Part shown: positions 7,603 through 7,699 of the stretch, piece by piece
How positions within the stretch are numbered: position 1 is the stretch's first letter
How the letters are laid out: the number at the start of each line of letters is the position of its first letter
Source of the DNA: Escherichia coli
GTDB taxonomy: Bacteria; Pseudomonadota; Gammaproteobacteria; Enterobacterales; Enterobacteriaceae
Length of the DNA stretch: 64,000 nt
NCBI RefSeq assembly: GCF_045037415.1
Contig: NZ_CP173438.1
Strand: one strand, 5' to 3'
Made by a program: the position numbers and the translations under genes
Notes under the pieces: generated by a model
What the model was told of the DNA's origin: nothing
Database searches by the model: none
What the model saw: only the letters and a program-made list of their open reading frames with translations

Positions 7603-7699
7603 CCTTCAGCGAAAAATTTGAAACGAGTGTTGCAGGGCAGTGAGAAGATTTGAGATGTGCTGGCCGCAAGCGCAGCCAGCACGGAATGGAGCAAAGTAA

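Follow-up and report, generated by a model that had tools for sequence, protein, structure and literature searches.

The perM-bcp spacer of a B2-type Escherichia coli as a probable ancient scar left by loss of the hyf-focB cassette

Occupied and hyf-free forms of the bcp-perM locus

Among the closest described counterparts of the locus studied here is the hyf operon of Escherichia coli K-12, which reportedly encodes hydrogenase-4/formate hydrogenlyase-2 (FHL-2) and is said to depend on sigma54 and on HyfR/FhlA (Andrews 1997; Skibinski 2002; cited in PMC3637554). In MG1655 the gene order is gcvR-bcp-hyfABCDEFGHIJ-hyfR-focB-yfgO(-)-bepA, which agrees with the K-12 synteny given in the initial annotation of our sequence, where hyf-focB was placed between bcp and yfgO (perM). 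The K-12 block consists of hyfA-J, hyfR and focB alone, with no integrase, transposase or tRNA, and its GC content (53.8%) is near that of its flanks (51.7 and 52.9%). The repeats at its ends measure only 6 bp. The block does not have the features of a genomic island moved by site-specific recombination or transposition.

That group B2 strains are devoid of hydrogenase-4 was already published in 2009: Table 5 of Touchon et al. (2009, PLoS Genet, PMC2617782) gives hyfABCDEFGHIJ as specifically absent from group B2. The passages of that paper concerned with these genes report their absence and do not state the anatomy of the junction, the presence of a regulatory remnant or the sharing of the genotype with E. 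albertii. Our search of the literature found reports of gene absence only, and no explicit description of the junction or scar. What is added here is the anatomy of the junction, together with a non-coding remnant and the occurrence of the scar outside B2, a modest addition to the published finding.

The sequence that we analysed (the window, 64 kb in length) carries the K-12 flanking genes in the opposite orientation, with no gene in the interval between them. The perM/yfgO gene, which encodes an AI-2E family transporter, occupies 6541..7602 on the plus strand and ends in a TGA at 7600-7602, and bcp, which encodes a thioredoxin-dependent thiol peroxidase and is annotated as bcp in strain SK1144, occupies 7700..8170 on the minus strand. 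According to these open reading frames the two genes are convergent and their stop codons are separated by 97 bp (7603..7699), as initially reported. The perM of the window is a 100% match to the yfgO of SK1144 and shows 97.4% DNA identity to that of K-12; bcp, from position 7670 onward, is 99-100% identical to K-12 in every 100 nt. Compared with K-12, which is the occupied allele of the same site, the window shares the hairpin beside bcp and has at 7611-7655 a homolog of the bcp-proximal upstream DNA, but it lacks the promoter, the twelve genes and the focB/perM terminator.

Over positions 7400-7900 the window is 100% identical to SK1144, a strain listed as phylogroup B2 in a 2025 paper (PMC12366417), and through this identity it would be assigned to a hyf-negative lineage of the B2 type. 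The hyfABCDEFGHIJ genes are missing both here and in the B2 genotype tabulated by Touchon et al. (PMC2617782), so the first of the two options put forward in the initial annotation, a lineage lacking hydrogenase-4, is in line with what that table records for B2. The same junction is present in NC101, also listed as B2 (PMC12366417), and in an APEC O2:K1:H7 strain, and in an O25b:H4-ST131 strain the match to the K-12 spacer is confined to its hairpin part.

A tblastn search with all K-12 Hyf and FocB proteins found no coding remnant of these genes in the 64-kb window. The sole match, 38% identical to HyfA, lies at 23094-23567 and corresponds to aegA. This stretch is the ferredoxin-like N-terminus of a gene that runs to about 25070; in SK1144 it is annotated as encoding the formate-dependent uric acid utilization protein AegA and it adjoins narQ and nudK.

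The most conspicuous element of the spacer is a GC-rich hairpin (GTGCTGGCCGCAAGCGCAGCCAGCAC) on the bcp (-) strand, which maps exactly to 7657..7682, where a stem-loop had been noticed initially, and has an 11-bp stem located 17 nt after the bcp stop. On the bcp strand the 97-nt spacer folds with -25.2 kcal/mol (z = -2.75 relative to shuffled sequences), whereas on the plus (perM) strand the fold is no better than that of the shuffles (z = -0.75). The hairpin is identical in the hyf-positive K-12; it is part of the bcp side and unrelated to hyf. In E. albertii the stem is kept, with one pair changed on both sides. A strong GC hairpin is found 15-45 nt after the bcp stop in almost all of 35 taxa, often with flanking A/T runs. 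The element is present as a single copy in the 64 kb even when up to 3 mismatches are allowed, which does not fit a multi-copy REP or BIME sequence, and no Rfam match was obtained in the spacer at E <= 1. As in rho-independent terminators between convergent genes, a GC-rich stem-loop follows the stop codon closely, but the Escherichia hairpin differs from them by its weak U tract: the tail after the stem, AUCUCAAAUCUUCUC, is poor, and a simple consensus terminator scan made no call. Equivalent hairpins in many other genera have clear T runs. The hairpin is probably the gcvR-bcp intrinsic terminator, provided with a weak U tract.

The TTCAGC junction and the DNA upstream of hyf

In K-12 one copy of the hexamer TTCAGC lies 2 bases past the perM stop and a second some 135 bp upstream of hyfA; read as GCTGAA, they map to 5062-5067 and 18813-18818 of the K-12 locus (L001), 13,751 bp apart, and both are also present in O157 strains. 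The window has a single copy, at 7605..7610, directly after the perM stop, as do HH45, a complete E. coli genome described below, and L004, a genome labelled as E. coli. The junction of HH45, GCTGAAGATTA, is exactly the product predicted for a deletion between the two K-12 repeats, so that the occupied allele accounts for the sequence of the hyf-free junction. The second option of the initial annotation, a clean deletion, is borne out to the extent that the junction is the one expected from such an event.

In our judgement the 97-bp spacer is most probably an ancient deletion scar of the whole hyfABCDEFGHIJ-hyfR-focB cassette. In K-12 terms 13,751 bp would have been lost, comprising the sigma54 promoter, the twelve genes and the focB/perM terminator, with endpoints in the two 6-bp TTCAGC copies, one 2 nt past the perM stop and the other about 135 bp upstream of hyfA, between an enhancer-like inverted repeat and the promoter. 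The event would have proceeded by microhomology-mediated illegitimate recombination or by replication slippage, a mechanism that we infer from its product. It resembles the microhomology-mediated deletions of bacterial genomes in having a 6-bp direct repeat at both ends, one copy of which is kept, and no mobile-element machinery, and departs from them in that the event is ancient and is read from the product alone; a 6-bp repeat could also be a chance occurrence. From perM to bcp, the deletion would have left one TTCAGC, about 45 nt derived from the DNA upstream of hyf and the intact terminator-type hairpin of bcp, while the K-12 terminator between perM and focB would have gone with the cassette. 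Carriers of the scar would thus be without hydrogenase-4 (FHL-2), HyfR and FocB. Such carriers depend on hyc (FHL-1) and FocA, both located outside the window.

The segment next to the junction (7611..7655, minus strand) is where a remnant of the lost element would be expected, and it is collinear with the bcp-hyfA spacers of K-12 and O157. Relative to the bcp-proximal part of the K-12 spacer it shows about 70% identity, with indels. Positions 7620-7637 (reverse complement CCCTGCAACACTCGTTTC) are the counterpart of the K-12 inverted repeat CGACAC-N3-GTGTCG, and 7611-7617 that of the ATTTTTTGC block, whereas a CRP-like palindrome of the hyf-positive alleles is gone from the window through a deletion of ~19 bp near 7648/7649. 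The local alignment score of the remnant against the K-12 upstream DNA is 20, compared with 8.9 +/- 1.5 for shuffled sequences (z about 7, p <= 0.001), and against the upstream DNA of E. fergusonii it is 15, compared with 8.7 +/- 1.6 (z about 4, p 0.008). In the same shuffle test the direct similarity to the hyf upstream DNA of Citrobacter amalonaticus and of Enterobacter sp. Bisph1 was not significant; with just about 45 nt in the remnant, the link to these two passes via K-12 and E. fergusonii. A 12-mer, CCCTACGACACT, is common to the E. albertii remnant and the E. fergusonii upstream DNA. Past the bcp hairpin, the scar sequence reads CCCTGCAACAC...TTTTTCGCTGAA.

The best explanation of this segment is that it represents former hyf upstream DNA, presumably no longer functional and in decay, with one half of the inverted repeat mutated and the CRP-like palindrome lost to the second, ~19-bp deletion. 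The initial statement that no hyf remnant is left in the spacer consequently stands for coding sequence, as the tblastn search agrees, and fails for non-coding sequence, 7611-7655 being decayed DNA from upstream of the hyf promoter.

That this DNA belongs with hyf is indicated by other genera, in which the same slot is occupied. In Enterobacter sp. Bisph1 (JXAG01000031.1) the interval between bcp and perM holds all twelve genes of the cassette in unchanged order, and in E. fergusonii (whose cluster includes the type-strain protein CAQ88237.1), C. amalonaticus and Kosakonia sp. R1.Fl, gcvR-bcp is followed directly by hyfA-hyfB-hyfC. A soil MAG (L018) also has the cassette at the bcp/perM slot, and one uncultured Klebsiella has hyf elsewhere. 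When the bcp-hyfA spacers of K-12, E. fergusonii, C. amalonaticus, Kosakonia and Bisph1 are aligned, conserved blocks appear in a fixed order: (1) the hairpin after bcp, of which the structure alone is conserved; (2) a palindrome like TGTGA-N6-TCACA; (3) an inverted repeat, CGACAC-N3-GTG(C/T)CGA; (4) GAACGTTAATGACCATCAyTTTTGT; (5) a sigma54-type TGGCA-N5-TTrTGC; and (6) AAGGAGCCGACATG. By their form and position, the second block would be a putative CRP site and the third a putative HyfR/FhlA site. The TTCAGC boundary separates block 3 from block 4. A 75-nt K-12 segment on its bcp side is significantly similar to the DNA upstream of hyf in E. fergusonii (p 0.002), Kosakonia (p 0.003) and Bisph1 (p 0.001), which indicates that this segment travels with hyf.

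These comparisons bear on the alternative that comes closest to surviving, in which the site is a virgin one: the spacer of B2, E. albertii and the cryptic lineage would be ancestral, hyf-focB would have been inserted once in an ancestor of the non-B2 strains, and TTCAGC would be a target-site repeat. Gene order speaks for it. In a PerM scan with one genome per species (80 loci), perM and bcp are adjacent in 54, with gaps of 46-264 nt, in taxa from Escherichia to Yersinia, Proteus and some Vibrio and Photobacterium; adjacency is thus the commonest state across the Enterobacterales and also occurs in some Vibrionaceae, and, judged by gene order only, an empty site as the ancestral state looks like the parsimonious choice. 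Furthermore, E. albertii and L004 are free of hyf, B2 is described as the basal group by Touchon et al. (2009, PMC2617782), TTCAGC flanks the block in the manner of a target duplication, and the divergence of the Hyf proteins between E. coli and E. fergusonii (69-81% identity, as opposed to 91-96% for the flanks) suggests that the cassette has moved horizontally. In fact, this was the reading that we first favoured, given the widespread adjacency and the collinearity of the window spacer with the 99-bp hyf-free spacer of E. albertii over its full length. We dropped it when the comparison with other genera assigned the shared stretch to the hyf cassette. If the site were virgin, the stretch between the boundary and bcp would be host DNA, yet the palindrome and the inverted repeat of K-12 are conserved upstream of hyfA in four taxa, and the supposedly empty spacer holds a degraded copy of hyf upstream DNA. 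Moreover, in other genera an empty spacer amounts to no more than a bidirectional terminator, unlike that of Escherichia, and the K-12 block lacks integrase, transposase and tRNA. An insertion into a virgin site is, in consequence, improbable.

Two further signs were considered and set aside. There was no sign of a large target duplication: the search for a longer duplicated perM 3' end beside hyfA gave a local alignment score of 17, no better than the shuffles (16.0 +/- 2.0). Nor was there a sign of an import tract in perM from a divergent donor, since divergence from K-12 beside the junction (2-4%) is not above that of more distant patches. The perM gene is unusually polymorphic in E. coli (96.4-97.8% DNA identity between the window, K-12, CT265 and HH45), and CT265, itself a carrier of the scar, has a perM just 96.8% identical to that of the window; the bcp-gcvR-dapA region on the other side is 99.2-99.9% identical among the strains compared.

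The comparison of the junction with hyf-positive strains, with its single TTCAGC and its upstream remnant, thus points to a deletion scar, and the anatomy of the junction answers in this sense the question, raised in the initial annotation, of whether the site is empty or scarred. It also provides a compact marker, as the TTCAGC junction and the remnant can be followed by PCR or by sequence.

Age and spread of the probable scar

Scar alleles are not confined to B2. E. albertii has a 99-bp spacer with TTTAGC in place of TTCAGC after the perM stop. L004, with flanks 92-95% identical to those of E. coli, has a hyf-free spacer of 62 bp, in which the same junction is accompanied by a further 35-bp loss; this genome presumably belongs to a cryptic Escherichia clade. 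A single Canadian study yielded two complete E. coli genomes, HH45 (NZ_CP116411.1, 1357130-1363214) and HH97 (NZ_CP116409.1), in which the scar lies within flanks that are K-12-like and not B2-like, with a bcp-dapA region 99.9% identical to that of K-12 and a perM stop in the context TAATC; the junction predicted from K-12 is found in both. The remaining E. coli have the occupied allele, and E. fergusonii has a strongly divergent form of it.

Three features are common to B2, HH45 and E. albertii: the main junction, the secondary 19-bp deletion, by which the block-2 palindrome is missing from all scars, and TCGTTTCAA-type substitutions in the remnant. This combination argues for one origin. In addition, a scar shared with E. 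albertii and with a cryptic lineage implies that the deletion is ancient, older than B2, and not a recent event of that group; on these alignments, it is apparently not B2-specific and predates the B2 lineage. The non-B2 E. coli would either have retained hyf all along or have reacquired it through flank-mediated recombination with a close relative.

A recent deletion in B2, with the spacers of E. albertii and of the cryptic clade arising from independent deletions at the same microhomology, would have to explain these shared features as coincidences. The 6-bp repeat could indeed be used more than once, and all E. coli alleles, whether scarred or hyf-positive, have CCCTGC where E. albertii and E. 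fergusonii have CCCTAC. However, the same junction, an identical 19-bp deletion and several identical substitutions recur in B2, HH45 and E. albertii, and the remnant differs from K-12 by ~30% plus indels while the adjacent bcp is 99-100% identical. Such a divergence beside a near-identical gene is too much for a deletion that took place within the history of E. coli itself, and we regard this scenario as highly unlikely.

With the ancient deletion retained as the preferred reading, the divergence of the cassette can be considered in its own right. Between E. coli and E. fergusonii, the Hyf proteins share 69-81% identity, whereas Bcp, GcvR and DapA share 91-96%; in the taxa listed above with the cassette at this slot, HyfA is 61-70% identical to that of K-12, whereas Bcp is 94-98% identical; and the E. 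coli and E. fergusonii sets of Hyf proteins are no closer to one another than either is to that of Citrobacter. This pattern suggests that the hyf cassette has an evolutionary history separate from that of the surrounding chromosome. A tentative extension, which we consider possible though doubtful, is that alleles with and without hyf at the bcp/perM site form a very old polymorphism crossing Escherichia species, the cassette being passed among genera of the Enterobacteriaceae by homologous recombination via the conserved flanking genes. If true, it would point to long-term, niche-dependent (balancing) selection on formate hydrogenlyase-2 and not to a one-off loss. The use of the same slot across enterobacterial genera, together with such divergent proteins, bears on how an operon regarded as 'silent' is retained and exchanged.

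Other genes have also been found between perM and bcp. In Citrobacter werkmanii, C. youngae and a Citrobacter sp. (L005-L007), the gap (6066-8650) holds a Gate-domain membrane protein and an amidohydrolase (~2.5 kb), and in Enterobacteriaceae RIT691 (L019) it holds a CdaR-like regulator, a GntP permease and a glycerate kinase (6066-9890, ~3.8 kb). Other cargo is present in L020, L029, L043, L048 and L049, and accessory operons seem to have settled repeatedly between the convergent perM and bcp genes.

Distribution of the two alleles in E. coli

Among 5,426 complete E. coli genomes, the contiguous perM-bcp junction is present in 1,126, while the whole bcp-hyfA spacer and the whole focB-perM junction are each present in 4,298. 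These figures uphold the initial view of the locus as a site of gene-content variation in E. coli. The hyfDEF genes were found in 4,296 of the 5,426 genomes, on plasmids in none and at no other place, and the number of genomes with no hyfDEF match (about 1,130) is complementary to that of junction carriers. Because the hyf-positive and junction counts complement each other in this way, hyf has not been relocated in the carriers of the junction. As to the composition of the 1,126 carriers, a restriction of the scar to B2 within this set rests on the literature and on the named strains. The remaining alternative, an assembly or sampling artefact or a move of hyf elsewhere, has a negligible chance of being correct, as no supporting evidence was found for it and the junction recurs in 1,126 complete genomes, with hyfDEF unmatched in about 1,130 and never on plasmids. 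These results could guide work on why gut and extra-intestinal B2 strains manage without FHL-2.

A few records depart from the two main states. One record typed as a plasmid matches in the junction search and in both spacer searches, its genome having two such places; it probably represents a piece of chromosome that was duplicated or wrongly assigned. In 2-4 genomes the scar and intact hyf junctions are both missing; for instance, ET776 matches on the perM side alone, and strain 357900 has a partial hyfDEF.
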